A stretch of 64,000 bases of DNA, taken from sequence record OQ378934.1; one strand, given 5' to 3'. Of the stretch, positions 24,683 through 47,775 are shown one piece after another (position 1 is the stretch's first letter; each line of letters begins with the position of its first letter). Both the position numbers and the translations under genes were made by a program. The DNA is from Escherichia phage LH2. The notes beneath the pieces are model-generated. The model had not been told where the DNA came from and did not search any database. It saw nothing but the letters and a program-made list of their open reading frames with translations.

Positions 24683-24684
24683 TT

Positions 24685-26738: not shown

Positions 26739-27941
26739 ATGAAAGTATGTATTTTTATGGCTCGAGGTCTTGAAGGTTGCGGTGTAACTAAATTTTCTCT
26801 TGAGCAGCGTGATTGGTTTATTAAAAATGGTCATGAAGTAACTTTGGTTTATGCTAAAGATAAATCATTTACTCGTAATTGCGCGCATGATTATAAATCA
26901 TTTTCAATTCCGGTTTTATTGGCAAAAGAATACGATAAAACACTTAAGCTGGTAAATGATTGTGATATTCTAATTATCAATTCAGTTCCTGCTACTTCAG
27001 TAGAAGAAGACACAATTAATAACTATAAAAAAATTATTGATAATATTAAACCTTCGGTTCGTGTTGTAGTTTATCAGCATGACCATTCTTCTCTTTCTTT
27101 ACGCCGAAATTTGGGATTAGAAGAAACTGTTCGTCGAGCTGATGTTATTTTTAGCCATTCTGATAATGGTGATTTTAATAAAGTTTTAATGAAAGAATGG
27201 TATCCGGAAACTGTTTCTTTGTTTGATGATATTGAAGAAGCACCGACCGTATATAACTTTCAGCCTCCTATGGATATTGCGAAGGTTCGATCAACCTACT
27301 GGAAAGATGTTTCTGAAATTAACATGAATATCAACCGTTGGATTGGTCGTACTACTACATGGAAAGGCTTTTATCAGATGTTTGATTTCCACGAAAAACA
27401 TCTTAAACCTGCAGGACTAAGTACTATTATGGAAGGTCTGGAACGTTCTCCAGCATTCATTCCTATTAAAGAAAAAGGAATTCCATACGAGTATTATCGT
27501 CTTCATCAAGTAGACCAAATTAAAATTGCTCCTAATTTGCCGACGCAAATTCTCGACCGTTATGTAAATAGCGAAATGCTTGAACGCATGAGTAAATCCG
27601 GATTTGGTTATCAGCTGAGTAAGTTGGACAAAAAATATCTACAGCGTTCTTTAGAATACACTCATCTCGAGCTTGGTGCATGTGGAACAATTCCAGTATT
27701 TTGGAAATCTACTGGTGAAAATTTAAAATTCCGTGTTGATAATACTCCGTTAATTTCTCATGATAGCGGTATCGTTTGGTTTGATGAAAATGACATGGAA
27801 TCAACATTTGAGCGTATTAAAGAACTGTCATCTGACCGAGCTCTTTATGACCGTGAACGTGAAAAAGCTTATGAATTTTTGTATCAGCATCAAGATTCAA
27901 GCTTCTGTTTTAAAGAACAGTTTGACATTATTACAAAATAA
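26739..27941 (+). CDS. agt: DNA alpha-glucosyltransferase
   Basis: 400 aa; N-terminus M..CIFMARGLEGCGVTKFSLEQRDWFIKNGHEV as recalled for T4 alpha-gt; between 55 and 47. Confidence 0.88.
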   Translation: MKVCIFMARGLEGCGVTKFSLEQRDWFIKNGHEVTLVYAKDKSFTRNCAHDYKSFSIPVLLAKEYDKTLKLVNDCDILIINSVPATSVEEDTINNYKKIIDNIKPSVRVVVYQHDHSSLSLRRNLGLEETVRRADVIFSHSDNGDFNKVLMKEWYPETVSLFDDIEEAPTVYNFQPPMDIAKVRSTYWKDVSEINMNINRWIGRTTTWKGFYQMFDFHEKHLKPAGLSTIMEGLERSPAFIPIKEKGIPYEYYRLHQVDQIKIAPNLPTQILDRYVNSEMLERMSKSGFGYQLSKLDKKYLQRSLEYTHLELGACGTIPVFWKSTGENLKFRVDNTPLISHDSGIVWFDENDMESTFERIKELSSDRALYDREREKAYEFLYQHQDSSFCFKEQFDIITK

Positions 27942-31263: not shown

Positions 31264-31277
31264 TTTATAAGAGATTA

Positions 31278-31301
31278 TGCTTTAATTTATTAGAGTATAA
31301 T
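31278..31301 (+). promoter_or_regulatory. Candidate MotA-dependent middle promoter
   Basis: tgcttta 31278-31284; tataat 31296-31301. Confidence 0.4.
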
Positions 31302-31318
31302 CTCTATGGAGGAAAAAC

Positions 31319-31507
31319 ATGGAATATTCAACTGGACAGCATCTATTAACTATTCCTGAAATAAAACGATATATTCTGAGAAATAATTTTTCTAATGAAG
31401 AGCATATAGTTACTGAATCTATGCTTAAGAATGCATTTAAATCAGAATATACGAAAATAATGTCCAACAGAAATGAAGCTTGGACTGTTACTGATTATTA
31501 TGACTAA
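31319..31507 (+). CDS. Hypothetical protein
   Basis: 62 aa; SD GGAGG. Confidence 0.5.
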   Translation: MEYSTGQHLLTIPEIKRYILRNNFSNEEHIVTESMLKNAFKSEYTKIMSNRNEAWTVTDYYD

Positions 31508-31516
31508 AGGTGTATT

Positions 31517-31906
31517 ATGACTAAAATTACTGTGAATTATACTGTTGATGTAAAAGATATTCAGCCAAAACACGTGCGTTCTGAATCAAATCCACAAAAC
31601 CAAAATAAAATTCGTCGAGCATGGGTTTTGTCTCTTTCTGATAACGCAATGGAAGTTATTCAGAACAAAATTAAATCTGCACCTGCTCGTCATGCGTATT
31701 ATGAAGCTATCGATCGTGAAGTGAGTGATAAATGGATTGAACTGATGCGCAAACATACTGCAGAATCTCTAAATGCTGGTGCTAAATTTATTATGACTTC
31801 ATGCGGTGAACGCCTTGAAGATGGTTATTGCGGTAATGCAGATGAACGTCTAATTGTTGCTGCTCAAATTGTTGCGGAAACAATTGCTGCTGAGTTTAAT
31901 CGTTAA
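31517..31906 (+). CDS. rpbA: RNA polymerase-binding protein RpbA
   Basis: 129 aa; between 46 and 45 as in T4; assignment by position and length. Confidence 0.6.
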
Positions 31907-31961
31907 TTGCTTTATTAAATTAGTTATAAAATTAAATCTCATTTGAATTGAAGGAAATTAC

Positions 31962-32648
31962 ATGAAATTATCTAAAGACACGCTGAATATTTTGAAAAAT
32001 TTCGCTACTATTAACTCTGGTATTATGCTTAAATCTGGTCAATTTATTATGACTCGCGCGGTTAATGGTACAACTTATGCAGAAGCAAATATTTCTGACA
32101 CTATTGATTTTGATGTAGCAATTTACGATTTGAACGGTTTTCTCGGTATTCTGTCTCTAGTTAATGATGATGCAGAAATTTCCCAGTCAGAAGATGGAAA
32201 TATTAAAATTGCTGATGCTCGTTCAACAATTTTTTGGCCAGCAGCCGATCCGAGTACAGTAGTTGCTCCTAATAAACCAATTCCATTCCCGGTAGCATCT
32301 GTTGTTACTGAAATTAAAGCGGAAGACCTTCAACAGCTGTTGCGTGTATCTCGCGGTCTGCAGATTGATACAATTGCTATCACAGTAAAAGAAGGTAAAA
32401 TCGTAATTAACGGTTTTAATAAAGTGGAAGATTCTGCTTTGACCCGTGTTAAATATTCTTTGACTCTTGGTGATTATGATGGTGAAAATACATTTAATTT
32501 CATTATCAATATGGCAAATATGAAAATGCAACCAGGAAATTATAAACTTCTGCTCTGGGCAAAAGGTAAACAAGGCGCTGCTAAATTTGAAGGTGAACAC
32601 GCGAATTATGTAGTAGCTCTTGAAGCTGATTCTACCCACGATTTTTAA
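31962..32648 (+). CDS. 45: Sliding clamp gp45
   Basis: 228 aa; MKLSKDTLNILKNFATINSGIMLKSGQFIMTRAVNGTTYAEANISD... Confidence 0.92.
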   Translation: MKLSKDTLNILKNFATINSGIMLKSGQFIMTRAVNGTTYAEANISDTIDFDVAIYDLNGFLGILSLVNDDAEISQSEDGNIKIADARSTIFWPAADPSTVVAPNKPIPFPVASVVTEIKAEDLQQLLRVSRGLQIDTIAITVKEGKIVINGFNKVEDSALTRVKYSLTLGDYDGENTFNFIINMANMKMQPGNYKLLLWAKGKQGAAKFEGEHANYVVALEADSTHDF

Positions 32649-32652
32649 TAGA

Positions 32653-32664
32653 GGGCTTCGGCCC
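32653..32664 (+). terminator. UUCG-loop hairpin after gene 45
   Basis: gggc-ttcg-gccc. Confidence 0.45.
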
Positions 32665-32699
32665 TTTATAATTTACATTAAAACTTGAATGAGGAAATT

Positions 32700-33659
32700 A
32701 TGATTACTGTAAATGAAAAAGAACACATTCTTGAACAGAAATATCGTCCATCTACTATCGATGAATGTATTCTTCCCGCCTTTGATAAAGAAACCTTTAA
32801 ATCTATTACAAGTAAAGGTAAGATTCCACATATTATTCTTCATTCTCCTTCTCCAGGAACAGGTAAAACAACTGTAGCAAAAGCGTTGTGTCATGATGTA
32901 AATGCTGATATGATGTTTGTGAATGGGTCAGATTGTAAAATTGATTTCGTTCGCGGTCCTTTGACTAATTTTGCTAGTGCAGCTTCATTTGATGGTCGTC
33001 AAAAAGTAATCGTTATTGATGAATTTGACCGTTCAGGGTTAGCAGAGTCTCAGCGACATCTTCGTTCCTTTATGGAAGCTTATAGTTCAAACTGTAGTAT
33101 TATTATTACTGCTAACAATATTGATGGTATTATTAAACCGCTTCAGTCACGCTGCCGAGTTATTACGTTCGGTCAACCGACCGATGAAGATAAAATTGAA
33201 ATGATGAAGCAGATGATTCGTCGATTGACTGAAATCTGTAAGCATGAAGGAATTGCTATAGCTGATATGAAAGTTGTAGCAGCTTTGGTTAAAAAGAATT
33301 TTCCTGATTTTCGTAAAACTATTGGCGAGCTCGATAGTTATTCGTCTAAAGGTGTTTTGGATGCTGGTATTTTATCACTGGTTACTAACGATCGTGGTGC
33401 TATTGATGATGTTCTTGAGTCTCTCAAAAATAAAGATGTTAAACAACTCAGAGCTTTAGCACCAAAATATGCGGCTGATTATTCGTGGTTCGTTGGTAAA
33501 CTTGCCGAAGAAATCTATACACGCGTAACTCCACAAAGTATTATTCGTATGTATGAAATTGTTGGTGAAAATAACCAGTATCACGGAATTGCGGCTAATA
33601 CGGAATTACATTTAGCATATCTTTTCATTCAATTGGCATGCGAAATGCAGTGGAAGTGA
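32700..33659 (+). CDS. 44: Clamp-loader ATPase subunit gp44
   Basis: 319 aa from ATG 32700; Walker [11 protein letters not shown]; Walker B VIVIDEFD. Confidence 0.9.
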
Positions 33660-33660
33660 T

Positions 33661-34224
33661 ATGAGCTTATTTGAAGATGATATTCAATTAAACGAGCATC
33701 AAGTTGCTTGGTATTCAAAAGATTGGACAGCTGTCCAATCTGTTGCTGATTCTTTTAAAGAAAAAGCTGAAAATGAGTTTTTTGAAATAATTGGAGCTAT
33801 TAATAATAAAACTAAATGCTCTATTGCTCAAAAAGATTATTCAAAATACATGGTTGAGAATGCATTATCACAATTTCCTGAGTGCATGCCAGCTGTATAT
33901 GCTATGAATTTAATTGGATCAGGTTTAAGCGATGAAGCCCATTTTAATTATCTAATGGCTGCTGTTCCTCGGGGTAAAAGATACGGTAAATGGGCAAAAC
34001 TGGTTGAAGATTCTACCGAAGTATTGATTATTAAGTTACTTGCTAAGCGGTATCAAGTTAATACAAATGATGCAATTAACTATAAATCAATTCTTACTAA
34101 AAATGGAAAACTTCCTTTAGTATTAAAAGAACTAAAAGGTTTAGTCACGGATGATTTTTTGAAAGAAGTGACTAAGAACGTAAAAGAACAGAAACAACTC
34201 AAAAAACTAGCATTGGAATGGTAA
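33661..34224 (+). CDS. 62: Clamp-loader subunit gp62
   Basis: 187 aa, directly after 44. Confidence 0.85.
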
Positions 34225-34225
34225 A

Positions 34226-34594
34226 ATGATTGAAATTACTCTTAAAAAACCTGAAGATTTTCTGAAAGTAAAAGAAACTTTGACTCGTATGGGAATTGCT
34301 AATAATAAAGATAAAGTTCTGTATCAGTCCTGTCATATTCTTCAGAAAAAAGGACTATACTATATCGTTCATTTTAAAGAAATGCTTCGTATGGATGGTC
34401 GTCAAGTTGAAATGACAGAAGAAGATGAAGTTCGTCGTGATTCAATCGCATGGCTGTTAGAAGATTGGGGACTGATTGAAATCGCTCCCGGTCAAAGAAC
34501 TTTTATGAAAGATTTAACTAATAACTTCCGAGTTATTTCTTTTAAACAAAAACATGAATGGAAACTCGTTCCTAAATATACGATTGGAAATTAA
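34226..34594 (+). CDS. regA: Translational repressor RegA
   Basis: 122 aa; MIEITLKKPEDFLKVKETLTRMGIANNKDKVLYQSCHILQKKGLYYIVHFKEM... Confidence 0.88.
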   Translation: MIEITLKKPEDFLKVKETLTRMGIANNKDKVLYQSCHILQKKGLYYIVHFKEMLRMDGRQVEMTEEDEVRRDSIAWLLEDWGLIEIAPGQRTFMKDLTNNFRVISFKQKHEWKLVPKYTIGN

Positions 34595-34597
34595 GCA

Positions 34598-34614
34598 AGG
34601 GGCTTCGGCCCCTT
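34598..34614 (+). terminator. UUCG-loop hairpin after regA
   Basis: aggggc-ttcg-gcccctt. Confidence 0.5.
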
Positions 34615-34672
34615 ATTTGGAGTATAATATATCAAGAGCCTAATAACTCGGGCTATAAACTAAGGAATATCT

Positions 34673-37369
34673 ATGAAAGAATTTTATATCTCTATTGAAA
34701 CAGTCGGAAATAGCATTGTTGAACGTTATATTGATGAAAATGGAAAGGAACGTACTCGCGAAGTAGAATATCTTCCGACTATGTTTAGACACTGTAAGGA
34801 AGAATCAAAATACAAAGACATTTACGGTAAAAATTGCGCTCCTCAAAAATTTCCATCAATGAAAGATGCCCGAGATTGGATGAAACGAATGGAAGACATC
34901 GGTCTCGAAGCTCTTGGTATGAACGATTTTAAACTCGCTTATATCAGTGATACATATGGTTCAGAAATTGTTTATGATCGAAAATTTGTTCGTGTAGCTA
35001 ACTGCGACATTGAGGTTACTGGTGATAAATTTCCTGACCCAATGAAAGCAGAATATGAAATTGATGCTATCACTCATTATGATTCAATTGACGACCGTTT
35101 TTACGTCTTTGATTTGTTGAATTCAATGTACGGTTCAGTATCAAAATGGGATGCAAAGTTAGCTGCTAAGCTTGACTGTGAAGGTGGTGATGAAGTTCCT
35201 CAAGAAATTCTTGACCGAGTAATTTATATGCCATTCGATAATGAGCGTGATATGCTCATGGAATATATTAATCTCTGGGAACAGAAACGACCTGCTATTT
35301 TTACTGGTTGGAATATTGAGGGATTTGACGTTCCGTATATCATGAATCGTGTTAAAATGGTTCTCGGTGAACGTAGTATGAAACGTTTCTCTCCAATCGG
35401 TCGAGTAAAATCTAAACTAATTCAAAATATGTACGGTAGCAAAGAAATTTATTCTATTGATGGCGTATCTATTCTTGATTATTTAGATTTGTACAAGAAA
35501 TTCGCATTTACTAATTTGCCATCATTCTCTTTGGAATCAGTTGCTCAACATGAAACCAAAAAAGGTAAATTACCATATGATGGTCCTATTAATAAACTTC
35601 GTGAGACTAATCATCAACGATACATTAGTTATAACATCATTGACGTAGAATCAGTTCAAGCAATTGATAAAATTCGCGGGTTTATTGATCTAGTTTTAAG
35701 TATGTCTTATTACGCTAAAATGCCTTTTTCTGGTGTAATGAGTCCTATTAAAACTTGGGATGCTATTATTTTTAACTCATTGAAAGGTGAACATAAGGTT
35801 ATTCCTCAACAAGGTTCGCACGTTAAACAAAGTTTTCCAGGTGCATTTGTGTTTGAACCTAAACCGATTGCTCGTCGATACATTATGAGTTTTGACTTGA
35901 CGTCTCTGTATCCTAGCATTATTCGTCAGGTTAACATTAGTCCTGAAACTATTCGTGGACAGTTTAAAGTTCATCCAATTCATGAATATATCGCAGGAAC
36001 AGCTCCTAAGCCAAGTGATGAATATTCTTGTTCTCCGAATGGATGGATGTATGATAAGCATCAAGAAGGTATCATTCCAAAGGAAATCGCTAAAGTATTT
36101 TTCCAGCGTAAAGATTGGAAAAAGAAAATGTTCGCTGAAGAAATGAATGCCGAAGCTATTAAAAAGATTATTATGAAAGGTGCAGGGTCTTGTTCAACTA
36201 AACCAGAAGTTGAACGATATGTTAAGTTCAATGATGATTTCTTAAACGAATTATCGAATTACACTGAATCTGTTCTTAATAGTCTGATCGAAGAATGTGA
36301 AAAAGCAGCTACACTTGCTAACACAAATCAGCTGAACCGTAAAATTCTTATTAACAGTCTTTATGGTGCTCTTGGTAATATTCATTTCCGTTACTATGAT
36401 TTGCGAAATGCTACTGCTATCACAATTTTCGGTCAAGTTGGTATTCAGTGGATTGCTCGTAAAATTAATGAATATCTGAATAAAGTATGTGGAACTGATG
36501 GTGAAGATTTCATCGCGGCGGGTGATACTGATTCGGTATATGTTTGTGTAGATAAAGTTATTGAAAAAGTAGGTCTTGACCGCTTTAAAGAACAAAATGA
36601 TTTAGTTGAATTCATGAATCAGTTCGGTAAGAAAAAGATGGAACCTATGATTGATGTTGCATATCGTGAGTTATGTGATTATATGAATAACCGCGAGCAT
36701 CTGATGCATATGGACCGTGAAGCTATTTCTTGCCCTCCACTTGGTTCAAAGGGTGTTGGTGGATTTTGGAAAGCGAAAAAACGTTATGCTCTGAACGTTT
36801 ATGATATGGAAGATAAGCGATTTGCTGAACCACATCTAAAAATCATGGGTATGGAAACTCAGCAGAGTTCAACACCAAAAGCAGTACAAGAAGCTCTCGA
36901 AGAAAGTATTCGTCGTATTCTTCAGGAAGGCGAAGAGTCTGTCCAAGAATACTATAAGAACTTTGAGAAAGAATACCGTCAACTTGACTATAAAGTTATT
37001 GCTGAAGTAAAAACCGCGAACGATATAGCGAAATATGACGATAAAGGTTGGCCAGGGTTTAAATGCCCGTTCCATATTCGTGGTGTACTAACTTATCGTC
37101 GAGCTGTTAGTGGTTTAGGTGTAGCTCCAATTTTGGATGGAAATAAGGTAATGGTTCTTCCATTACGTGAGGGAAATCCATTTGGTGACAAGTGTATTGC
37201 TTGGCCGTCGGGTACGGAACTTCCAAAAGAAATTCGTTCTGATGTACTGTCTTGGATTGACTACTCAACTTTGTTCCAAAAATCGTTTGTTAAACCGCTT
37301 GCGGGCATGTGTGAATCGGCAGGTATGGACTATGAGGAAAAAGCTTCGTTAGACTTCCTGTTTGGCTGA
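34673..37369 (+). CDS. 43: DNA polymerase gp43 (family B)
   Basis: 898 aa; exonuclease motifs (DIEV, YNIIDV) and polymerase motifs (DLTSLYPSI, YGDTDS, KKRY). Confidence 0.95.
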   Translation: MKEFYISIETVGNSIVERYIDENGKERTREVEYLPTMFRHCKEESKYKDIYGKNCAPQKFPSMKDARDWMKRMEDIGLEALGMNDFKLAYISDTYGSEIVYDRKFVRVANCDIEVTGDKFPDPMKAEYEIDAITHYDSIDDRFYVFDLLNSMYGSVSKWDAKLAAKLDCEGGDEVPQEILDRVIYMPFDNERDMLMEYINLWEQKRPAIFTGWNIEGFDVPYIMNRVKMVLGERSMKRFSPIGRVKSKLIQNMYGSKEIYSIDGVSILDYLDLYKKFAFTNLPSFSLESVAQHETKKGKLPYDGPINKLRETNHQRYISYNIIDVESVQAIDKIRGFIDLVLSMSYYAKMPFSGVMSPIKTWDAIIFNSLKGEHKVIPQQGSHVKQSFPGAFVFEPKPIARRYIMSFDLTSLYPSIIRQVNISPETIRGQFKVHPIHEYIAGTAPKPSDEYSCSPNGWMYDKHQEGIIPKEIAKVFFQRKDWKKKMFAEEMNAEAIKKIIMKGAGSCSTKPEVERYVKFNDDFLNELSNYTESVLNSLIEECEKAATLANTNQLNRKILINSLYGALGNIHFRYYDLRNATAITIFGQVGIQWIARKINEYLNKVCGTDGEDFIAAGDTDSVYVCVDKVIEKVGLDRFKEQNDLVEFMNQFGKKKMEPMIDVAYRELCDYMNNREHLMHMDREAISCPPLGSKGVGGFWKAKKRYALNVYDMEDKRFAEPHLKIMGMETQQSSTPKAVQEALEESIRRILQEGEESVQEYYKNFEKEYRQLDYKVIAEVKTANDIAKYDDKGWPGFKCPFHIRGVLTYRRAVSGLGVAPILDGNKVMVLPLREGNPFGDKCIAWPSGTELPKEIRSDVLSWIDYSTLFQKSFVKPLAGMCESAGMDYEEKASLDFLFG

Positions 37370-37382
37370 TAGAATAAATCTA

Positions 37383-37404
37383 GGGACCTCCGGGTCCCCT
37401 TTTC
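37383..37404 (+). terminator. Intrinsic terminator after gene 43
   Basis: gggacc-tccg-ggtccc then cttttc. Confidence 0.55.
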
Positions 37405-37470
37405 ATACAAGTAATATAAATCTATACTTAAGAAAAATAGATGATTCTAGGACCTTTGAATTCATTAAAA

Positions 37471-37550
37471 AATTTTTCACAAAGCTGTTTACAAGACTGT
37501 TCCTCTGTGGTACTATACAACTATCAACCAATACAAATTTGGAGAATGAA
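37471..37550 (+). repeat. Promoter-leader cassette (PeSL-like), copy C
   Basis: Contains the 42-nt block identical to 12163-12204 and the ttggagaatgaaATG leader. Confidence 0.6.
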
Positions 37551-37931
37551 ATGAAAATCGCTATTTTGGTTATTGCATTGGGTCTTACTGGTTGTGTAGC
37601 TCAAGGACCGGTAGTAAATCAGTCTGATGTAGGAAAAATTGTAAACTGTTCAAGCAAATTTTATAATCCTAACGTCAAGTGTTATAAAGAAGTTCCAAAA
37701 CAGACAGTAGAACAAATGCAGGCGAATTTTGACGAAGCTATTCGTCCAGATGAATCTGCACAAGCATATCGTAATTCAGATGTGATTACGCGTGAAGAAA
37801 AAATTGAAAACTACTGTGCTGAACTTTGGGCAAATTGGGCTAATAATTACCAATGGCGTACTGGTAAAAATGCTCCGATGGAGTATGTAGTAAATTCTTA
37901 TAATTCATGTGTAAAAAATTTGACTAAGTGA
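37551..37931 (+). CDS. Lipoprotein
   Basis: MKIAILVIALGLTGC lipobox; start supplied by the cassette. Confidence 0.6.
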   Translation: MKIAILVIALGLTGCVAQGPVVNQSDVGKIVNCSSKFYNPNVKCYKEVPKQTVEQMQANFDEAIRPDESAQAYRNSDVITREEKIENYCAELWANWANNYQWRTGKNAPMEYVVNSYNSCVKNLTK

Positions 37932-37938
37932 GGAAAAC

Positions 37939-38190
37939 ATGGAAACTTTAGTAGCAGGTTCAATTTTTATGGTTTTAGTTTCAGGCGTGTTGGCTATTAT
38001 TATATACATGCTTCCATGGTTTATCGCCTTGATGCGCGGGTCAAAATCGACAGTAGGAATCTTTTTCACATCTTTACTGTTTAACTGGTCAATTATTGGT
38101 TGGTTTATTACATTTATTTGGTCAATTGCGGGTGAAACTAAAAAATCCGCACAACCAAATCAAGTAATTATCATCAGAGAGAAGGAATGA
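37939..38190 (+). CDS. imm: Immunity (superinfection exclusion) membrane protein Imm
   Basis: 83 aa, two TM segments; between 43 and 42 as in T4. Confidence 0.8.
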   Translation: METLVAGSIFMVLVSGVLAIIIYMLPWFIALMRGSKSTVGIFFTSLLFNWSIIGWFITFIWSIAGETKKSAQPNQVIIIREKE

Positions 38191-38336
38191 AAAGCAAAAT
38201 TTTAGCAGTATTGCTTTTAATCTTGATGATTATAATAAGTATATACTATAGCGTAGCAGTTCCTTGTATGATTCCAACGCTTATTATAGGGTGGAGTTTA
38301 TTACTGTTACAAGTTAAATATGAATGTATCAATTGA
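38187..38336 (+). CDS. Small hydrophobic membrane peptide (49 aa, below ORF-track cutoff)
   Basis: ATGA overlap with imm stop; MKSKILAVLLLILMIIISIYYSVAVPCMIPTLIIGWSLLLLQVKYECIN. Confidence 0.4.
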   Translation: MKSKILAVLLLILMIIISIYYSVAVPCMIPTLIIGWSLLLLQVKYECIN

Positions 38337-38343
38337 GGTTTAA

Positions 38344-39084
38344 ATGATTAATGACTCTATGACAGTTGAAGAAATCCGTCTTCATTTGGGAATTGCATTA
38401 AAGGAAAAAGATTTCGTAGTTGATAAAACTGGTGTTAAAACTATTGAAATTATTGGTGCATCATTTGTAGCAGATGAACCTTTTATTTTTGGCGCTCTTA
38501 ATGACGAATACATTCAGCGTGAACTTGAATGGTATAAATCTAAAAGTTTGTTTGTTAAAGATATTCCGGGTGAAACACCGAAGATTTGGCAGCAGGTAGC
38601 ATCTTCTAAAGGCGAAATTAACTCGAATTATGGTTGGGCCATCTGGTCGGAAGATAACTATGCTCAGTATGACATGTGTTTAGCTGAACTTGGTCAAAAT
38701 CCTGATTCTCGACGTGGTATCATGATTTATACTCGTCCATCCATGCAGTTTGACTACAATAAAGATGGCATGTCAGATTTCATGTGTACGAATACAGTGC
38801 AGTACCTGATTCGTGATAAGAAAGTCAATGCAGTGGTTAACATGAGAAGCAATGATTGCTGGGCAGGCTATCGTAATGATTATGCATGGCAAAAATACGT
38901 ATTAGATAAATTAGTATCTGATTTGAATGCAGGCGATTCAACTCGTCAGTATAAAGCAGGTTCTATTATATGGAATGTTGGAAGTCTTCATGTATATTCT
39001 CGTCATTTTTACTTGGTTGATCATTGGTGGAATACTGGCGAAACTCATATTATGAAAAAAGATTATAACGGTGAGTGGAAATGA
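38344..39084 (+). CDS. 42: dCMP hydroxymethylase gp42
   Basis: 246 aa; thymidylate-synthase-like fold motifs; close match to T4 gp42 as recalled. Confidence 0.92.
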   Translation: MINDSMTVEEIRLHLGIALKEKDFVVDKTGVKTIEIIGASFVADEPFIFGALNDEYIQRELEWYKSKSLFVKDIPGETPKIWQQVASSKGEINSNYGWAIWSEDNYAQYDMCLAELGQNPDSRRGIMIYTRPSMQFDYNKDGMSDFMCTNTVQYLIRDKKVNAVVNMRSNDCWAGYRNDYAWQKYVLDKLVSDLNAGDSTRQYKAGSIIWNVGSLHVYSRHFYLVDHWWNTGETHIMKKDYNGEWK

Positions 39085-39923
39085 TTCAATTTGTAATTCC
39101 AAGTTATCAACGTGTAGGGGCAGTTTCTGCCCTTGATATGTTTCCGACTGATTATGAACCTCATATTGTAGTACGTGAACACGAAGAAAAAGCTTATTAT
39201 GATGCTTATGGGTCTAGAGCTAAAATTATAACTATTCCTGATGATGTTAATGGAATTGCTGGTACTCGTAAAGCAATTACTAATATGTATGCAGGTCAAC
39301 GAATCTGGATGATTGATGATGATACTACTATTCGTATGAGTTCAATGCGAAAGAAAGATGATCGTCGCTGCGTAGATAAAATTAATCAATTAACTCGTGA
39401 ACAGTTCTATGAATTGATTCAATACGTTGAAGATGCCATGGATTGTGGGTATTATCACGGTCATGCTCGTCTACCTATTTTTAAAATTACTTCATCTTGG
39501 GGTAATTATCGTGAAAATTCATATGGATTCACGAATACCTGGTATGACCTCGGAAAACTTACAACAGAACAAATTGGGTATGGAAAAATTGATTTATGCG
39601 AAGATATGTATGCATTTCTCAATTTAATTAATCAAGGTTATCCGCATTTGGCCTTGTTCAAATATCTGGTTGTATCTGGAAAAGCACAAGCTCCAGGCGG
39701 ATGTAGTTCAATTCGTAGTAATTCAAAACATAATAGAGCTCTTGAGCAAATCAATAGAGAGTTTCCGGAGCAAGCTCGTTGGAAAACTTCTAATATTGAA
39801 AAACGAAAATCATTAGGTGAAGAAGACGAGCCATTAAAGGTTCTTCGCATGTGTGTTTCACGCAAAGAAAAATCAGAAGCGTTTCATAAGTTTAATGCTA
39901 TTCATCCAATAGCGGTTGATTAA
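39081..39923 (+). CDS. Glycosyltransferase, GT-A-like (DxD motif), at the beta-gt locus
   Basis: FVIPSYQR N-terminus and IDDDTTIR DxD motif; does not resemble T4 beta-glucosyltransferase as I recall it. Confidence 0.6.
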   Translation: MIQFVIPSYQRVGAVSALDMFPTDYEPHIVVREHEEKAYYDAYGSRAKIITIPDDVNGIAGTRKAITNMYAGQRIWMIDDDTTIRMSSMRKKDDRRCVDKINQLTREQFYELIQYVEDAMDCGYYHGHARLPIFKITSSWGNYRENSYGFTNTWYDLGKLTTEQIGYGKIDLCEDMYAFLNLINQGYPHLALFKYLVVSGKAQAPGGCSSIRSNSKHNRALEQINREFPEQARWKTSNIEKRKSLGEEDEPLKVLRMCVSRKEKSEAFHKFNAIHPIAVD

Positions 39924-39927
39924 TGAC

Positions 39928-40593
39928 ATGAAAAGACATAAAGAAAAGAAATATAATTATACTTATGTTATAACTAATTTAGTTAATAATAAAATTTACT
40001 ATGGAACTCATTCAACCGATGATTTAAATGATGGTTATATGGGATCAGGAACTTTATTAGCACAAGCCAAGAAAAAGTATGGTAAGAAAAATTTTAATTT
40101 AAGCATTCTTGGGTTTTATAAAGATTTTAAATCAGCCCGTGATGCTGAAAGAGAATTAGTAACAATAGATGTGGTAAATGATCCTATGACTTATAATTTA
40201 AAAATTGGTGGAGAGGGTGGTAGAAGAATTGGTTATAGAGTTTCATCAGAAACCAAAGAAAAAATTTCAAAAGCTCAAAAAGGAAAACCAAAACATCTTG
40301 GATTTAGTGATGTTTGCCGGAAAGCCCAGCTAGGCAAAAAGCAGTCAGAAGAAACTAAAGCAAAACGAAAAGAAGCTTTGCTTAATAATCCATATGGTTA
40401 TAATAGAAATAAACCATCACATAAACGTGACCCAATAATGTGGGATAACATTGAAAAGATTAAAGAAATATGGGAAAACTCTGGAAAACCCGGTGCTATT
40501 AAGCTTAAAAAATTAGCAATTGAAGCTGGATTTCCAAATAAATCTTATGCAAGAATGCTCGAAGTATTTCGTGGAACAAGAACACTACTATAA
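39928..40593 (+). CDS. Freestanding GIY-YIG homing endonuclease (Seg-like)
   Basis: YVITNLVNNKIYYGTHS...YMGSGTLL; paralog of the 21242 ORF; NUMOD3-like repeats. Confidence 0.75.
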   Translation: MKRHKEKKYNYTYVITNLVNNKIYYGTHSTDDLNDGYMGSGTLLAQAKKKYGKKNFNLSILGFYKDFKSARDAERELVTIDVVNDPMTYNLKIGGEGGRRIGYRVSSETKEKISKAQKGKPKHLGFSDVCRKAQLGKKQSEETKAKRKEALLNNPYGYNRNKPSHKRDPIMWDNIEKIKEIWENSGKPGAIKLKKLAIEAGFPNKSYARMLEVFRGTRTLL

Positions 40594-40601
40594 GGTATTA
40601 T

Positions 40602-41777
40602 ATGTCTGATTTAAAATCTCGTTTGATTAAAGCTTCTACTTCTAAATTGACTGCAGAATTAACAGCATCTAAATTCTTTAATGAAAAAGATGTAGTTCGA
40701 ACAAAAATTCCTATGATGAATATTGCACTTTCTGGTGAAATTACTGGTGGTATGCAATCTGGTCTGTTAATTTTGGCAGGTCCATCAAAATCATTTAAAT
40801 CAAACTTTGGATTAACAATGGTGTCATCTTACATGCGTCAATATCCTGATGCAGTATGTTTGTTTTATGATAGTGAATTTGGTATTACTCCTGCTTATTT
40901 GCGGTCTATGGGAGTCGATCCAGAACGAGTAATTCATACTCCGGTTCAATCACTTGAGCAATTACGTATTGACATGGTTAATCAATTGGATGCAATTGAA
41001 CGCGGCGAAAAGGTAGTCGTTTTTATCGATTCACTTGGTAACTTAGCTTCTAAGAAAGAAACTGAAGATGCTTTAAATGAAAAAGTTGTTAGTGATATGA
41101 CTAGAGCTAAAACAATGAAAAGCTTATTTCGTATCGTAACTCCCTATTTTAGTACTAAAAATATTCCATGTATTGCTATTAACCATACATACGAAACACA
41201 AGAAATGTTTAGTAAAACAGTTATGGGAGGTGGTACTGGACCGATGTATTCGGCTGATACTGTATTCATTATCGGTAAGCGCCAGATTAAAGATGGTTCT
41301 GATCTTCAGGGGTATCAATTTGTTCTAAATGTAGAAAAATCTCGTACCGTCAAAGAAAAAAGTAAATTCTTTATTGATGTTAAATTTGACGGTGGTATCG
41401 ATCCTTATTCTGGATTGTTAGATATGGCTCTTGAATTAGGATTTGTAGTAAAACCTAAAAATGGCTGGTATGCTCGTGAATTTCTTGATGAAGAAACCGG
41501 CGAGATGATTCGCGAAGAAAAATCTTGGCGTGCAAAAGATACCAACTGTACTACATTCTGGGGTCCTTTATTTAAGCATCAACCATTCCGAGATGCTATT
41601 AAACGCGCTTATCAGTTAGGTGCTATTGATAGTAATGAAATTGTTGAAGCTGAAGTTGATGAATTGATTAACTCAAAGGTTGAAAAATTTAAATCTCCAG
41701 AAAGTAAAAGTAAATCAGCAGCTGATTTAGAAACTGACCTAGATCAGTTAAGTGATATGGAAGAATTTAATGAATAA
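40602..41777 (+). CDS. uvsX: Recombinase UvsX (RecA-like)
   Basis: 391 aa; Walker A GPSKSFKS; matches T4 UvsX. Confidence 0.92.
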   Translation: MSDLKSRLIKASTSKLTAELTASKFFNEKDVVRTKIPMMNIALSGEITGGMQSGLLILAGPSKSFKSNFGLTMVSSYMRQYPDAVCLFYDSEFGITPAYLRSMGVDPERVIHTPVQSLEQLRIDMVNQLDAIERGEKVVVFIDSLGNLASKKETEDALNEKVVSDMTRAKTMKSLFRIVTPYFSTKNIPCIAINHTYETQEMFSKTVMGGGTGPMYSADTVFIIGKRQIKDGSDLQGYQFVLNVEKSRTVKEKSKFFIDVKFDGGIDPYSGLLDMALELGFVVKPKNGWYAREFLDEETGEMIREEKSWRAKDTNCTTFWGPLFKHQPFRDAIKRAYQLGAIDSNEIVEAEVDELINSKVEKFKSPESKSKSAADLETDLDQLSDMEEFNE

Positions 41778-42114
41778 AGATGATTTAGATTTAGATCTAG
41801 AAATTATCGATGAATCCCCCTCTTCGGAGGGGGAAGAAGAAAGAAAAGAACGTCTTTTTAATGAATCTCTTAAGATAATTAAATCTGCTATGGAAAATGT
41901 TATCCAGGAGATTGTCATTAAACTAGAAGACGGTTCTACACACATTGTGTATGTGACAAAATTAGATTGGGTTGATGGAAAAGTCGTAATGGACTTTGCT
42001 GTTCTTGACCAAGAAAGAAAAGCTGAGTTAGCTCCTCATGTAGAAAAATGTATTACAATGCAACTACAAGATGCATTTAATAAAAGGTCAAAGAAAAAAT
42101 TTAAATTCTTTTAA
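41770..42114 (+). CDS. 40: gp40-like protein (head assembly factor)
   Basis: ATG overlapping uvsX stop; 114 aa; position between uvsX and 41. Confidence 0.6.
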   Translation: MNKDDLDLDLEIIDESPSSEGEEERKERLFNESLKIIKSAMENVIQEIVIKLEDGSTHIVYVTKLDWVDGKVVMDFAVLDQERKAELAPHVEKCITMQLQDAFNKRSKKKFKFF

Positions 42115-42123
42115 GGAGTAAGT

Positions 42124-43551
42124 GTGGTAGAAATTATTCTTTCTCATCTCATATTTGATCAAGCTTATTTTTCAAAAGTTTGGCCATATATGGATTCAGA
42201 ATATTTTGAAAGTGGTCCAGCTAAAAATACATTCAAATTAATTAAATCTCATGTCAATGAGTACCATAGCGTTCCATCTATTAATGCGTTAAATGTTGCG
42301 TTAGAAAATAGTTCATTTACTGAAACAGAATATTCTGGTGTAAAAACACTTATTTCGAAACTAACCGATTCTCCAGAAGACCACAGCTGGTTAGTAAAAG
42401 AAACAGAAAAATATGTTCAGCAAAGGGCGATGTTTAATGCTACGTCTAAAATAATTGAAATTCAAACTAATGCTGAGCTTCCTCCGGAAAAACGAAATAA
42501 GAAAATGCCAGATGTAGGTGCTATTCCTGACATCATGCGCCAAGCATTATCAATTTCATTTGATAGTTACGTTGGTCATGATTGGATGGATGACTACGAA
42601 GCACGTTGGCTATCTTATATGAATAAAGCTCGTAAGGTTCCATTTAAACTCAAAATTCTAAATAAAATTACTAAAGGCGGAGCTGAAACTGGAACACTGA
42701 ACGTTTTAATGGCTGGTGTTAACGTCGGTAAGTCATTAGGTCTGTGTTCATTGGCAGCAGATTATTTGCAGCTCGGACATAATGTTCTTTACATTTCCAT
42801 GGAAATGGCTGAAGAAGTTTGTGCTAAACGTATTGACGCTAATATGCTTGATGTTTCTCTTGATGACATTGATGATGGGCATATTTCTTACGCTGAATAT
42901 AAAGGAAAAATGGAAAAATGGCGTGAGAAATCTACTCTTGGTCGTTTAATCGTTAAACAGTATCCTACTGGTGGAGCAGATGCTAACACATTCAGGTCTC
43001 TCTTGAATGAATTGAAGCTCAAGAAGAATTTTGTTCCAACAATCATTATTGTCGACTATCTAGGTATTTGTAAATCTTGCCGCATTAGAGTTTATTCAGA
43101 AAATAGTTACACAACTGTTAAAGCTATTGCAGAAGAATTGCGTGCTCTGGCTGTTGAAACCGAAACTGTTCTTTGGACTGCAGCACAGGTTGGTAAACAA
43201 GCTTGGGATTCTTCTGATGTTAACATGAGTGATATCGCAGAATCTGCCGGTCTTCCAGCAACAGCTGATTTTATGCTTGCGGTCATTGAAACCGAGGAGC
43301 TAGCAGCTGCTGAACAACAACTCATTAAGCAAATCAAATCACGATATGGTGATAAGAATAAATGGAATAAGTTTTTGATGGGTGTTCAAAAAGGAAATCA
43401 GAAATGGGTAGAAATTGAACAAGATTCTACTCCAACTGAAGTGAACGAAGTAGCAGGTTCACAACAGATTCAGGCTGAACAGAATCGCTATCAAAGAAAT
43501 GAATCTACTCGAGCCCAGTTAGATGCTTTGGCAAATGAATTAAAATTTTAG
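42124..43551 (+). CDS. 41: Replicative DNA helicase gp41 (DnaB-like)
   Basis: 475 aa; GTG start after SD AAGGAG; Walker A GVNVGKS. Confidence 0.92.
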   Translation: MVEIILSHLIFDQAYFSKVWPYMDSEYFESGPAKNTFKLIKSHVNEYHSVPSINALNVALENSSFTETEYSGVKTLISKLTDSPEDHSWLVKETEKYVQQRAMFNATSKIIEIQTNAELPPEKRNKKMPDVGAIPDIMRQALSISFDSYVGHDWMDDYEARWLSYMNKARKVPFKLKILNKITKGGAETGTLNVLMAGVNVGKSLGLCSLAADYLQLGHNVLYISMEMAEEVCAKRIDANMLDVSLDDIDDGHISYAEYKGKMEKWREKSTLGRLIVKQYPTGGADANTFRSLLNELKLKKNFVPTIIIVDYLGICKSCRIRVYSENSYTTVKAIAEELRALAVETETVLWTAAQVGKQAWDSSDVNMSDIAESAGLPATADFMLAVIETEELAAAEQQLIKQIKSRYGDKNKWNKFLMGVQKGNQKWVEIEQDSTPTEVNEVAGSQQIQAEQNRYQRNESTRAQLDALANELKF

Positions 43552-43580
43552 TTTACAAGCTGACAAGACTATGGTATAGT
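43551..43580 (+). promoter_or_regulatory. T4-type early promoter with palindromic -10 region
   Basis: gtttac 43551-43556; tatagt 43575-43580 inside acaagact...agtcttgt inverted repeat. Confidence 0.5.
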
Positions 43581-43609
43581 AGTCTTGTTGGTTAAATGAG
43601 GAGATCGTT

Positions 43610-43792
43610 ATGGAATTGGTAAAGGTAGTTTTTATGGGGTGGTTTAAGAATGAAAGCATGTTTACTAAAGAAATCACAATGATGAAAGATGACGTTCAAT
43701 GGGCTACTACTCAATATGCTGAAGTTAATAAAGCATTAGTTAAAGCTTTCATTGATGACAAGAAAGTATGTGAAGTGGATTGCCGAGGATAA
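43610..43792 (+). CDS. dmd: Dmd-like antitoxin (inhibitor of host RnlA/LsoA RNase toxins)
   Basis: 60 aa; MELVKVVFMGWFKNESMFTKEITMMKDDVQW... as recalled for T4 Dmd; immediately downstream of 41. Confidence 0.6.
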   Translation: MELVKVVFMGWFKNESMFTKEITMMKDDVQWATTQYAEVNKALVKAFIDDKKVCEVDCRG

Positions 43793-43793
43793 T

Positions 43794-44051
43794 ATGCATA
43801 TTGTTTTATTTAAACCTACTCCGTATAACGTCAGGAAAAATACTCAATTCAAAGCACTTATTGCAGATACGTGGGAATTGGTGCTAGATATTCCAGCAGA
43901 AGAAAGTCCTCCATTTGGTCGAGTGGAATTTATTAAGTTTGCTGTGCGCCCTACGAAGCGACAGATTCGTCAATGCAAAAGATACTTTCGTAAAATCGTC
44001 AAGTTAGAGAAACAGTTTGTAACATGTGATTATGCAGAAGTTTTAAAATAA
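43794..44051 (+). CDS. Hypothetical protein
   Basis: ATG 43794; 85 aa. Confidence 0.45.
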   Translation: MHIVLFKPTPYNVRKNTQFKALIADTWELVLDIPAEESPPFGRVEFIKFAVRPTKRQIRQCKRYFRKIVKLEKQFVTCDYAEVLK

Positions 44052-44053
44052 GT

Positions 44054-44086
44054 GTTTACTTTTGTTGAAAATTGAGATACTATAAA
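44054..44086 (+). promoter_or_regulatory. T4-type early promoter
   Basis: gtttac 44054-44059; tactataaa -10 region. Confidence 0.45.
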
Positions 44087-44109
44087 CATAAACTACTGAG
44101 GAGATTATC

Positions 44110-44403
44110 ATGAAAAAATTTGTTTTTGCTGCAATTTTTGCTTTGACTTCTTGTGCTGCTCAGCCTGCTATGGCAGGTTATGATAAAGATTTGTGTGAAT
44201 GGTCTATGACAGCAGATCAGACTGAGGTTGAAACTCAGATTGAAGCAGATATTATGAATATCGTTGAGCGTGATCGCCCTGAAATGAAAGCTGAAGTACA
44301 AAAACAGCTTAAGTCTGGTGGTGTAATGCAGTATAATTACGTTCTGTATTGTGATAAAAACTTCAATAATAAAAATATCATCGCTGAAGTGGTAGGTGAA
44401 TAA
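44110..44403 (+). CDS. sp: Periplasmic protein, Spackle-like
   Basis: 97 aa with signal peptide MKKFVFAAIFALTSCAAQPAMA; position 41 to 61 as in T4; assignment by position and size. Confidence 0.55.
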   Translation: MKKFVFAAIFALTSCAAQPAMAGYDKDLCEWSMTADQTEVETQIEADIMNIVERDRPEMKAEVQKQLKSGGVMQYNYVLYCDKNFNNKNIIAEVVGE

Positions 44404-44415
44404 TTAGAGGTTAAT

Positions 44416-44772
44416 ATGTATAGTTCTGAATTTCCATATTTAAAAATGGAAAAAATTTCATACGATTTTATAGATGAAAAGGTTTATTACAGTTTTCATG
44501 AGCCGCGTTTTAACAGTGAAGTCGGTTTTATTGTAGTAAAAGACAATTTCATTTTAAAGATATATTCGGCATTAAAGGATTTTCACTACGAAAATATTAA
44601 CCTAAAATTTGATAAAGAAAACGTTCGTAATTGCGCAGTAACAATTACAGGAAATAAAGGTACATGCGTTATGCTATCTGATGAAATTAATGATTTGCTA
44701 AATGATGCCGAAAAGGTTGTTATTCCATCGATTGATGACCAAATTTTTAATGCTTTTATGAATAGAGGTTAA
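44416..44772 (+). CDS. Hypothetical protein
   Basis: 118-aa ORF. Confidence 0.5.
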   Translation: MYSSEFPYLKMEKISYDFIDEKVYYSFHEPRFNSEVGFIVVKDNFILKIYSALKDFHYENINLKFDKENVRNCAVTITGNKGTCVMLSDEINDLLNDAEKVVIPSIDDQIFNAFMNRG

Positions 44773-44773
44773 T

Positions 44774-44938
44774 ATGAAAACATATAAAGAATTTATCAAA
44801 GAAGATATGGTCGCTGGAGATTCAGGTGGTAGTCCTGAAAATATCTCTACTGGAACAACATCAGGCGCTGTAGTAAATAAAGGCCCTGAACAGATTCCTA
44901 AAAAGAAAAAAGAGGAATCTAAAGAAAAAGAAGAGTAA
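44774..44938 (+). CDS. Small hydrophilic protein with capsid-targeting-sequence-like N-terminus (54 aa, below ORF-track cutoff)
   Basis: MKTYKEFIKE resembles the T4 internal-protein CTS; SD GAGG upstream; ends 2 nt before primase ATG. Confidence 0.45.
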   Translation: MKTYKEFIKEDMVAGDSGGSPENISTGTTSGAVVNKGPEQIPKKKKEESKEKEE

Positions 44939-44940
44939 AA

Positions 44941-45969
44941 ATGTCATCAATACCTTGGATTGATAATGAGTTTGCATACCGTGCATTAGCTCATTTACCT
45001 AAATTCACACAAGTAAATAATAGTTCAACTTTTAAATTGCGGTTTAGATGTCCTGTTTGTGGAGATTCAAAAACCGACCAAAATAAAGCCCGTGGATGGT
45101 ATTATGGTGATAATAATGAAGGAAATATTCATTGTTATAACTGTAACTATCATGCACCAATCGGAATATATCTAAAGGAGTTTGAACCTGATTTATATCG
45201 TGAGTATATCTTTGAAATAAGAAAAGAAAAAGGTAAAAGTCGTCCAGTAGAAAAACCTAAAGAACTTCCTAAACAACCTGAGAAGAAAATAATTAAATCT
45301 CTTCCGTCATGTGTTAGATTAGATAAACTGGCGGAAGGCCATCCAATTATAAAATATGTAAAAGCTCGCTGTATTCCAAAGGATAAATGGAAATATCTTT
45401 GGTTTACAACCGAATGGCCTAAATTAGTTAATAGCATAGCACCAGGAACATATAAAAAGGAAATACCTGAGCCTCGTCTTGTTATTCCAATTTATAATGC
45501 TAATGGAAAAGCTGAGTCTTTTCAAGGACGCGCATTAAAGAAAGATGCTCCTCAAAAATATATTACCATCAAAGCTTATCCTGAGGCAACAAAAATCTAT
45601 GGTGTTGAACGGGTTAAAGATGGTGATGTATATGTTCTAGAAGGACCTATAGATTCACTTTTTATTGAAAATGGTATAGCTATTACAGGTGGTCAATTAG
45701 ACCTAGAAATTGTTCCATTTAAAGATAGACGTGTATGGGTTTTAGATAATGAACCTCGTCATCCTGACACTATTAAACGAATGACTAAATTAGTTGATGC
45801 AGGAGAAAGGGTTATGTTTTGGGACAAATCTCCCTGGAAATCAAAAGATGTTAATGATATGATTAGAAAGGAAGGTGCAACCCCTGAGCAAATTATGGAA
45901 TATATGAAAAATAATATTGCGCAGGGGTTGATGGCTAAAATGCGGCTATCTAAATATGCTAAGATTTAA
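44941..45969 (+). CDS. 61: DNA primase gp61
   Basis: 342 aa; Zn-ribbon CPVCGDS...CYNC; TOPRIM-like core. Confidence 0.92.
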   Translation: MSSIPWIDNEFAYRALAHLPKFTQVNNSSTFKLRFRCPVCGDSKTDQNKARGWYYGDNNEGNIHCYNCNYHAPIGIYLKEFEPDLYREYIFEIRKEKGKSRPVEKPKELPKQPEKKIIKSLPSCVRLDKLAEGHPIIKYVKARCIPKDKWKYLWFTTEWPKLVNSIAPGTYKKEIPEPRLVIPIYNANGKAESFQGRALKKDAPQKYITIKAYPEATKIYGVERVKDGDVYVLEGPIDSLFIENGIAITGGQLDLEIVPFKDRRVWVLDNEPRHPDTIKRMTKLVDAGERVMFWDKSPWKSKDVNDMIRKEGATPEQIMEYMKNNIAQGLMAKMRLSKYAKI

Positions 45970-46166
45970 ATTAACCCAACTAAAGCAAATGCTAAATCTA
46001 CGAATGTATCAAGAGTAATTACTGGAATACTAACGCCATGAGCAATAGCAACTGGCGATAAAACAAAATTCCAAAGTAAAATTCCTATCATAGCAGAAAT
46101 AGTAAAAGCTATACGTTTTTTATTACCTTTGATGGCATTAACAAGTGCCATTAATTTTTGTACCAT
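45966..46166 (-). CDS. Small membrane protein encoded on the opposite strand
   Basis: 66 aa, two hydrophobic segments; strong SD (AAGGAGG) 6 nt before ATG on the minus strand; convergent with 61. Confidence 0.55.
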   Translation of the reverse strand: MVQKLMALVNAIKGNKKRIAFTISAMIGILLWNFVLSPVAIAHGVSIPVITLDTFVDLAFALVGLI

Positions 46167-46179
46167 ATGTCCTCCTTAT

Positions 46180-46203
46180 TGCTTTATATATTTATTGTAT
46201 AAT
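46180..46203 (+). promoter_or_regulatory. Candidate MotA-dependent middle promoter upstream of the HNH gene
   Basis: tgcttta 46180-46186; tataat 46198-46203. Confidence 0.4.
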
Positions 46204-46236
46204 TAATCTACTAACCAATGAATTGAAAGGATATAT

Positions 46237-46887
46237 GTGAATTACCAAAAAATTTACTCGGCTTTAATTACAAAAGCTAAATGCCGGCATCTTGGCGGAT
46301 ATAAAGAACGCCATCATATAATTCCTAGATGTATAGGAGGAGCAGATGACAAAAACAATCTTGTTGAGTTAACTGCGCGTGAGCATTTTATAGCTCATAG
46401 ATTATTAACTAAAATATATCCAGATGTGAGAGGATTGCATTATGCTGTAAATTTAATGCGATATAATAAAGGTGTTAAATTAACAAGTAGATTAATAGAA
46501 ACTCTTAAAATCCAAAACTCTGTTCTTTTCTCGGGTGAAAATAATCCTAGATATGGCAAGCCGTCATGGATTAAAGGCAAAAAGACCCCAGAAGAAACTA
46601 AAGCCAAAATGCGTCTAGCTCATAAAGGTAAAATTATATCCGATGAAGCCAAGGCTAATATGAGTAAAGCCCGAAAAGGAAGATTTAGCGGTAAAAATTC
46701 GCCTCGATACGGTTTACCAAATCCTAGGCGAGGAGAAATATGGAATAGTTATGATGCGCTTTATGAATTATGGGTTTATAATAATAGACCTAAGCGCACA
46801 AAATTTAATAAAATAGCTGTCAAGGCAGGTTATCCTAATATCTGCTATAGACATATGATAGAAAACTTCATAAGAAAGGAAAAATAA
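46237..46887 (+). CDS. Freestanding HNH homing endonuclease (Mob-like)
   Basis: GTG start; HNH motif ERHHIIPRCIGGADDKNNLVELTAREH; NUMOD3-like repeats; between 61 and 56. Confidence 0.75.
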   Translation: MNYQKIYSALITKAKCRHLGGYKERHHIIPRCIGGADDKNNLVELTAREHFIAHRLLTKIYPDVRGLHYAVNLMRYNKGVKLTSRLIETLKIQNSVLFSGENNPRYGKPSWIKGKKTPEETKAKMRLAHKGKIISDEAKANMSKARKGRFSGKNSPRYGLPNPRRGEIWNSYDALYELWVYNNRPKRTKFNKIAVKAGYPNICYRHMIENFIRKEK

Positions 46888-46888
46888 C

Positions 46889-47407: not shown

Positions 47408-47451
47408 TAGCTCGTTTATTTAAACGACGACTTAAAAGCCGCGAGAATTAT

Positions 47452-47459
47452 TATAAATA
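47452..47459 (+). promoter_or_regulatory. Late promoter TATAAATA for soc
   Basis: Exact octamer about 30 nt upstream of soc ATG. Confidence 0.6.
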
Positions 47460-47489
47460 ATCATGTAATTTAAATAAAAGGAGAATTAC

Positions 47490-47735: not shown

Positions 47736-47740
47736 ATTCA

Positions 47741-47765: not shown

Positions 47766-47775
47766 CATTTTACCG

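Follow-up and report, generated by a model that had tools for sequence, protein, structure and literature searches.

In phage T4, gene 42 and segA/uvsX flank a map slot occupied by the β-glucosyltransferase gene (β-gt, b-gt; PDB 1JG7). Which glycosyltransferase occupies this slot in Escherichia phage LH2 (OQ378934.1), and which sugars would it place on the phage DNA? The question matters because the sugar pattern on hmC decides which host defences, among them the Brig1 glycosylase, BapA/Brig3, GmrSD/BrxU-type type IV enzymes, and CRISPR nucleases, can attack a T-even phage. We analysed a window of 64,000 nucleotides (64 kb) of the LH2 sequence. A preliminary description of this window had noted, between gene 42 and uvsX, a 280-aa GT-A-type glycosyltransferase with the motifs FVIPSYQR and IDDDTTIR, and had read it as a T2/T6-like enzyme of DNA modification that stands in place of T4 β-gt.

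The open reading frame was intact, running from an ATG at 39081 through 280 codons to a TAA at 39921-39923, and its product contained both motifs, FVIPSYQR as residues 4-11 and IDDDTTIR as residues 78-85 (Table 1). The program-made list of open reading frames placed the start two codons upstream, at a GTG at 39075. However, T2 and related phage records start the gene at the ATG corresponding to 39081, and the overlap of this codon with the gene 42 TGA (ATGA) suggests translational coupling of the two genes. The gene thus lies directly after gene 42 as described, but it does not adjoin uvsX, from which it is separated by segA, encoding a GIY-YIG protein of 221 aa. Between LH2 and T2, 34 codons of the gene differed synonymously and five non-synonymously, so the gene is under purifying selection.

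Table 1 Genes and sequence tracts of the glycosyltransferase locus and its pathway partners in the 64-kb LH2 window.
Feature	Position	Strand	Evidence and remarks
α-gt, DNA α-glucosyltransferase; makes the α-glucosyl-hmC acceptor	26739..27941	+	E 5e-257 to T4 AGT structure 1xv5
Gene 42, dCMP hydroxymethylase; makes hm-dCMP	38344..39084	+	PF00303, E 3.7e-15; 95-97% identical to gp42 of T4, T2, and T6; stop overlaps βα-gt start (ATGA)
834-nt cassette non-homologous to T4	39067..39900	+	Alignment and anchor search; T4 counterpart of 1234 nt with β-gt (T4 record 24263-25496)
βα-gt (ggt), β-glucosyl-HMC-α-glucosyltransferase, 280 aa	39081..39923	+	TAGT family (PF20691), GT-A
Codons D79-D80-D81, DxD-type metal/nucleotide-sugar binding motif	39313..39321	+	Invariant in 45-sequence alignment; aligns with DDD of GT2 enzyme 9jma (profile match)
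Last 23 nt of βα-gt, kept as a remnant in T4 directly upstream of segA	39901..39923	+	21/23 identical, stop codon included; T4 NC_000866 ~24240-24262; T4 matches start at query position 202 = 39901
segA, GIY-YIG homing endonuclease, 221 aa, between βα-gt and uvsX	39928..40593	+	220/221 identical to T4 SegA; PF01541 and NUMOD3; absent from T2 and T6
Gene 56, dCTPase/dUTPase; keeps unmodified dCTP out of phage DNA	46889..47407	+	PF08761 dUTPase_2, 29.2 bits vs cutoff 22.9; after gene 61 as in T4 (gene-order inference)

The protein was nearly identical to the βα-glucosyltransferases of T2 and T6. It shared 275 of 280 residues with T2 (AP018813) and differed at seven of 280 positions from T6 (MH550421), one of the seven being the stop codon of the T6 record itself. 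It matched PHROG 842, named 'beta-glucosyl-HMC-alpha-glucosyltransferase', with an E-value of 2.7e-88, and the Pfam family PF20691 (TET-associated glycosyltransferase, TAGT) with 38.3 bits against a gathering score of 27.5, over profile positions 2-205 of 205. NCBIfam contained no model for βα-GT and none for α-gt. The first round of homologue searches gave 11 proteins, and a profile search raised the family to 51, down to ~12% identity. In an alignment of 45 family sequences, 12-77% identical to the query, residues I6, R11, R63, D79, D80, and D81 were invariant and P7 and Y9 nearly so; LH2 has all of the invariant residues. As the invariant and nearly invariant positions of the alignment include I6, P7, Y9, R11, and D79-D81, the family sequences indicate that the two motifs are not a matter of chance.

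Taken together, the family models, the identity to T2 and T6, the location, the partner genes, and the invariant residues place the LH2 protein in the T2/T6 βα-GT family (TAGT, PF20691/PHROG 842). We conclude, with a probability of roughly 0.93, that the gene encodes a T2/T6-type β-glucosyl-HMC-α-glucosyltransferase (βα-GT, ggt, or TAGT), which gives gentiobiosyl-hmC after the action of α-GT. The second-glucose enzyme of the preliminary description is thereby borne out, with α-gt also present in the window. The reaction itself, transfer of a β-1,6-linked glucose to α-glucosyl-hmC, is predicted for LH2 by analogy with related phages; the chemistry has been shown in phages whose genes are 97.5-99% identical (PMC11078745, PMC13390438). 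The LH2 gene resembles those of T2 and T6 in its length of 280 codons, its position directly after gene 42, the ATGA overlap, the α-gt partner, the DDD motif, and the GT-A fold. It differs in that segA lies between βα-gt and uvsX, which is the case in neither T2 nor T6.

The reading that the LH2 protein is instead a T4-like β-glucosyltransferase, placing a single β-glucose directly on hmC, has one point in its favour, namely the synteny of its gene with T4 β-gt. T4 β-gt and the LH2 enzyme share this slot, an expected UDP-glucose donor, and the formation of a β-glycosidic bond on phage DNA. However, they are unrelated in sequence and differ in length (351 aa vs 280 aa) and in acceptor, which is bare hmC for T4 β-gt and α-glucosyl-hmC for βα-GT of the LH2 type. 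BLASTP between the two proteins gave a chance match (E 3.4), and a tblastn search of the whole 64-kb window with T4 β-gt gave nothing better than E 2.5, likewise a chance match, so no β-gt is encoded in the window. The two-domain GT-B fold of the T4 enzyme was not found in the LH2 protein either, which is predicted to be GT-A (PMC13216743), and phages with the LH2 gene set lack β-glucosyl-hmC (PMC13390438). With the BLASTP result and the fold both against it, a T4-like identity is refuted and almost certainly wrong.

The wording 'in place of' T4 β-gt is the one weak point of the preliminary description, since βα-gt is the commoner gene, with 479 records in the phage collection against 29 for T4-type β-gt. 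Of the 479 phage records with nucleotide matches to βα-gt, 474 had a coverage of the gene of 80% or more, with identities of 90-99% in nearly all cases, and almost all were Tequatrovirus phages of Escherichia, Shigella, Yersinia, and Salmonella. Named features in the matching records read 'beta-glucosyl-HMC-alpha-glucosyl-transferase' and adjoined dCMP hydroxymethylase. Within the genus, βα-gt at this slot is therefore the majority and ordinary state, with T4 as the exception. In agreement, T4 and a few close relatives have been described as unique in having both α-GT and β-GT, most phages pairing one of these with TAGT (PMC13216743). The identity, product, and fold of βα-GT and its synteny with T4 β-gt are already annotated and published (PMC13216743, PMC13390438), and its presence in LH2 is a matter of routine annotation rather than a discovery. 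Outside the genus, TAGT homologues of Jiaodavirus, Slopekvirus, and Karamvirus phages of Klebsiella and Enterobacter share 64-66% full-length identity with the LH2 protein and its position after gene 42; they belong to other genera.

The fold of the protein was assigned from structure prediction, since sequence-based searches of the PDB gave nothing or a marginal match. A search with the single protein gave no meaningful match, the best being to RNA-binding proteins (E 0.77). The profile of the 45 sequences matched one PDB sequence marginally, the GT2 enzyme 9jma (E 0.031, residues 5-94), in an alignment that includes the IPSY.R strand-loop at the N-terminus as well as the DDD motif. The PDB copy searched yielded neither a solved structure nor a mechanistic study for any TAGT. 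The AlphaFold2 model, built with the family alignment as input, had a mean pLDDT of 92.7 and a pTM of 0.90. It showed a single Rossmann-like α/β/α domain with the DxD motif ending a central strand, and the GT-A assignment of the preliminary description was confirmed by this model and by a fold search, with Foldseek giving the same families at E ~1e-6. Several of the closest structural relatives are well-known inverting GT2 enzymes, and an inverting reaction is consistent with the formation of a β-linked product from UDP-α-glucose. A published analysis identified the T6 enzyme with PF20691/TAGT, built an AlphaFold3 model of it, and assigned it to the GT-A superfamily, as a sister of GT2 (PMC13216743).

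The GT-2-like N-terminus that had been proposed from the motifs holds at the level of the fold and of the marginal 9jma match, but not at the level of sequence families, as the Pfam model Glycos_transf_2 (PF00535) gave no match to βα-GT at E <= 1. As modelled, βα-GT is a GT-A protein that is GT2-like in structure and forms a sequence family of its own, not a sequence-level member of GT2. It is 7-16% identical to bacterial inverting GT-A enzymes of the GT2 type (WrtF, AvpGT/PglI-like 9jma, TarS, TarP, K4CP, BcsA). About 200 of its 280 residues align with these enzymes, and its C-terminal 70 residues have no counterpart in them. Their acceptors are lipid-, teichoic-acid-, or glycan-linked sugars, whereas that of βα-GT is a sugar on duplex DNA.

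The partner genes that would supply the acceptor of βα-GT were found in the window (Table 1). Gene 42, gene 56, α-gt, and βα-gt form a complete T2/T6-type set, without β-gt in the 64 kb. Compared with LH2 α-GT, the T2 protein differed at four residues, the T6 protein at 35, and the T4 protein at 36. The T2-like lysozyme substitutions mentioned in the preliminary description were also found; compared with T4, gene e (190-684) has the substitutions N40S, A41V, and T151A, and its product differs from T2 lysozyme at one residue. In addition, a 216-aa open reading frame with NUMOD3 and a weak HNH match, resembling a free-standing homing endonuclease, lies between genes 61 and 56, directly upstream of gene 56 (46237-46887).

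It should be noted that LH2 gp42 carries an unusual patch. Residues 172-176 (38857-38871) read CWAGY, compared with VVFGF in T4, T2, and T6, VVFGY in a Klebsiella phage, and AIFGY in Aeromonas phage 31. This clustered replacement of four residues lies in the active-site region, just before the RND segment with D179, and the allele is apparently common to ~124 Tequatrovirus records, as judged by the coverage of a 91-nt probe. We considered whether the patch marks another base chemistry, such as that of the 5-hydroxy-dCMP synthase of RB69-like phages, and rejected this, as LH2 gp42 is 95-97% identical to gp42 of T4, T2, and T6 and 26% identical to the RB69 homologue. The conserved D179 and the occurrence of the allele in so many Tequatrovirus records also speak against an altered gp42 chemistry.

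With these partners, the following pathway may be proposed for LH2. gp42 would make hm-dCMP, gp56 would remove dCTP, and the phage polymerase would incorporate hmC into DNA. α-GT would then add an α-linked glucose to hmC in duplex DNA, and βα-GT would attach a second glucose, donated by UDP-glucose, in a β-linkage to the 6-OH of the first, producing gentiobiosyl-hmC. No β-monoglucosyl-hmC would be made because β-gt is absent. By analogy with GT-A enzymes, βα-GT is predicted to be an inverting transferase that holds a divalent metal and UDP-glucose at D79-D81. Gene 42 and βα-gt are probably transcribed together, and translation of the two may be coupled through the ATGA overlap. In line with such a pathway, a T6 Δba-gt mutant retained only α-glucosyl-hmC (PMC11078745). 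Tequatrovirus phages of the Durham collection with α-GT and TAGT contained, by HPLC/MS, hmdC and its α-glucosyl and α-5-gentiobiosylmethyl-dC forms, and no β-glucosyl form (PMC13390438).

Another acceptor for the LH2 enzyme has also to be weighed, in which TAGT would act as the primary transferase on bare hmC or on some other acceptor rather than on α-glucosyl-hmC. Of 753 phages encoding glycosyltransferases, 288 have TAGT without α- or β-GT (PMC13216743), and these solitary TAGTs presumably act in this way. Distant TAGT homologues (~21% identity) were also found in metagenomic phage contigs (L010, 6001-6813; L011, 6001-6810) with neighbours that include HMUDK_hel (5-hmdU DNA kinase-like), thymidylate-synthase homologues, dUTPase/DCD, and a SPASM-domain protein, which points to roles of the family in other base-hypermodification pathways as well. 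For LH2, however, identity of 97.5-98% to T2 and T6 leads one to expect the same specificity as theirs. The T6 deletion mutant lost gentiobiosyl-hmC and kept the α-glucosyl form (PMC11078745), and in T2 and T6, although they have the enzyme, ~25% of hmC is left bare. We therefore regard a primary transferase in LH2 as very improbable and retain α-glucosyl-hmC as the acceptor.

The two database records of T6 raise a further possibility, that βα-gt is an inactive relic. One of them (MH550421; locus L002, 4138-4980) has TAG at codon 10 of ba-gt, and its coding sequence is annotated from M20. The other (AP018814; locus L004, 2135-2974) has a 3-nt deletion of one codon that reduces the invariant DDD to DD. 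Both lesions are probably loss-of-function, and some sequenced laboratory stocks of T6 may thus make no gentiobiosyl-hmC. Since both records are lesioned, loss of βα-gt is evidently tolerated in the laboratory. The LH2 frame, by comparison, is intact, has every invariant residue, and differs from T2 by strongly synonymous substitutions, which makes a relic very unlikely here and favours a functional βα-GT.

If the enzyme is functional, the extent of its action is the next question. T2 carries 5% gentiobiosyl-hmC and T6 72% with near-identical enzymes, and the α-gt of LH2 is T2-like; the extent in LH2 is therefore uncertain. By analogy with its relatives, LH2 DNA is probably T6-like, much of its cytosine being diglucosylated and some remaining as bare hmC. 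A variant of the preferred explanation, differing only in the extent of modification, would have βα-GT contribute little, as in T2 (~5%), so that the DNA is mainly α-monoglucosylated with bare hmC. In its favour, LH2 α-GT is four residues from that of T2 and 35 from that of T6, the lysozyme is of the T2 type, and βα-GT is closer to T2 (five differences) than to T6 (seven); a low extent of gentiobiosylation may thus be compatible with the T2-like α-gt and lysozyme. However, LH2 has the family-invariant R11, which T2 alone has replaced. Moreover, field isolates with 98.9%-identical enzymes are about two-thirds gentiobiosylated and others ~40% (PMC13390438). Among them is the Durham phage Solly, with ~two-thirds of its cytosines gentiobiosylated (PMC13390438) and a TAGT (homologue H68) 98.9% identical to LH2 βα-GT. 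We accordingly rate the T2-like extent as unlikely, though less so than the other alternatives, and favour the T6-like one.

The T2 allele deserves separate mention. At codon 11 of the T2 gene (AP018813; locus L003, 4283-5125), the arginine that is invariant in the 45-member alignment is changed to histidine (R11H). In a search for exact matches, the T2 60-mer containing this codon was found only in T2 stocks and SV76. We speculate that R11H is a possible cause of the difference between 5% gentiobiosyl-hmC in T2 and 72% in T6. LH2 carries neither R11H nor the lesions of the two T6 records.

The preliminary description expected that the modification would change sensitivity to modification-dependent host nucleases, and such effects are documented. 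T6 Δba-gt was more sensitive to the Brig1 glycosylase than the wild type, whose DNA Brig1 did not degrade in vitro (PMC11078745), and BapA, which gentiobiosyl-hmC DNA likewise resisted in vitro, cannot remove the glucose of gentiobiosyl-hmC (bioRxiv 10.64898/2026.02.25.707755). The combination of α-gt and βα-GT without β-gt predicts T6-like gentiobiosyl DNA and is thus useful for predicting host range and choosing phages for therapy.

The borders of the locus bear on how T4 came to differ. Compared with T4, the cassette of LH2 begins inside the last codons of gene 42 and ends 23 nt before the βα-gt stop codon (Table 1). The C-terminus of gp42 reads ...VGKYA in T4, compared with ...GEWK in LH2, T2, T6, and a Klebsiella Jiaodavirus. 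LH2 thus has the ...GEWK tail together with the ATGA overlap in common with the distant Klebsiella phages. The 23-nt remnant in T4 together with its derived gp42 tail implies that the T4 lineage once had βα-gt, the 834 nt of which were replaced by the 1234-nt β-gt cassette. To the right of the cassette, segA is followed by uvsX from 40602, so that the order of glucosyltransferase slot, segA, and uvsX is as in T4. The ~1.4 kb from 39901 to 41300, comprising segA and the 5' two-thirds of uvsX, was 99-100% identical to T4, compared with 91% for the left flank in gene 42, and the identity of the right-hand region to T2 and T6 was 93%. Only eight of 491 matching phage records contained the βα-gt/segA junction.

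SegA is known to cut in uvsX (PMC2988022), and the T4-like tract right of the junction is consistent with a homing or co-conversion tract of SegA, or with shared recent ancestry. We tentatively suggest, as a possibility toward the doubtful side, that the LH2 locus preserves an arrangement ancestral to the β-gt locus of T4, a segA-bearing ancestor having exchanged βα-gt for the β-gt cassette, and that conversion driven by SegA could shuffle the glucosyltransferase cassette. If so, gene conversion by SegA could swap such cassettes between co-infecting T-even phages and switch the type of sugar on their DNA. The window as a whole is a mosaic, with T2-like lysozyme e and α-gt and T4-like segA and uvsX, and its region 28000-48000 was covered by no database phage at more than ~96.6% identity.

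A scan of positions 37300-40700 for promoters and terminators found promoter-like sites at chance level (16 vs 15.2 expected), and no dedicated βα-gt promoter can be claimed. A G+C-rich hairpin with a 9-bp stem (TAGGGGCAG-TTT-CTGCCCTTG) lies at 39115-39135, 35 nt inside the coding region of βα-gt, and T2 and T6 have the identical hairpin. It may modulate βα-gt expression, but may just as well be incidental to the coding sequence. A 101-nt region at the junction of gene 42 and βα-gt folded better than its shuffled versions (z = -2.9), and a terminator is annotated at βα-gt in a few phage records.
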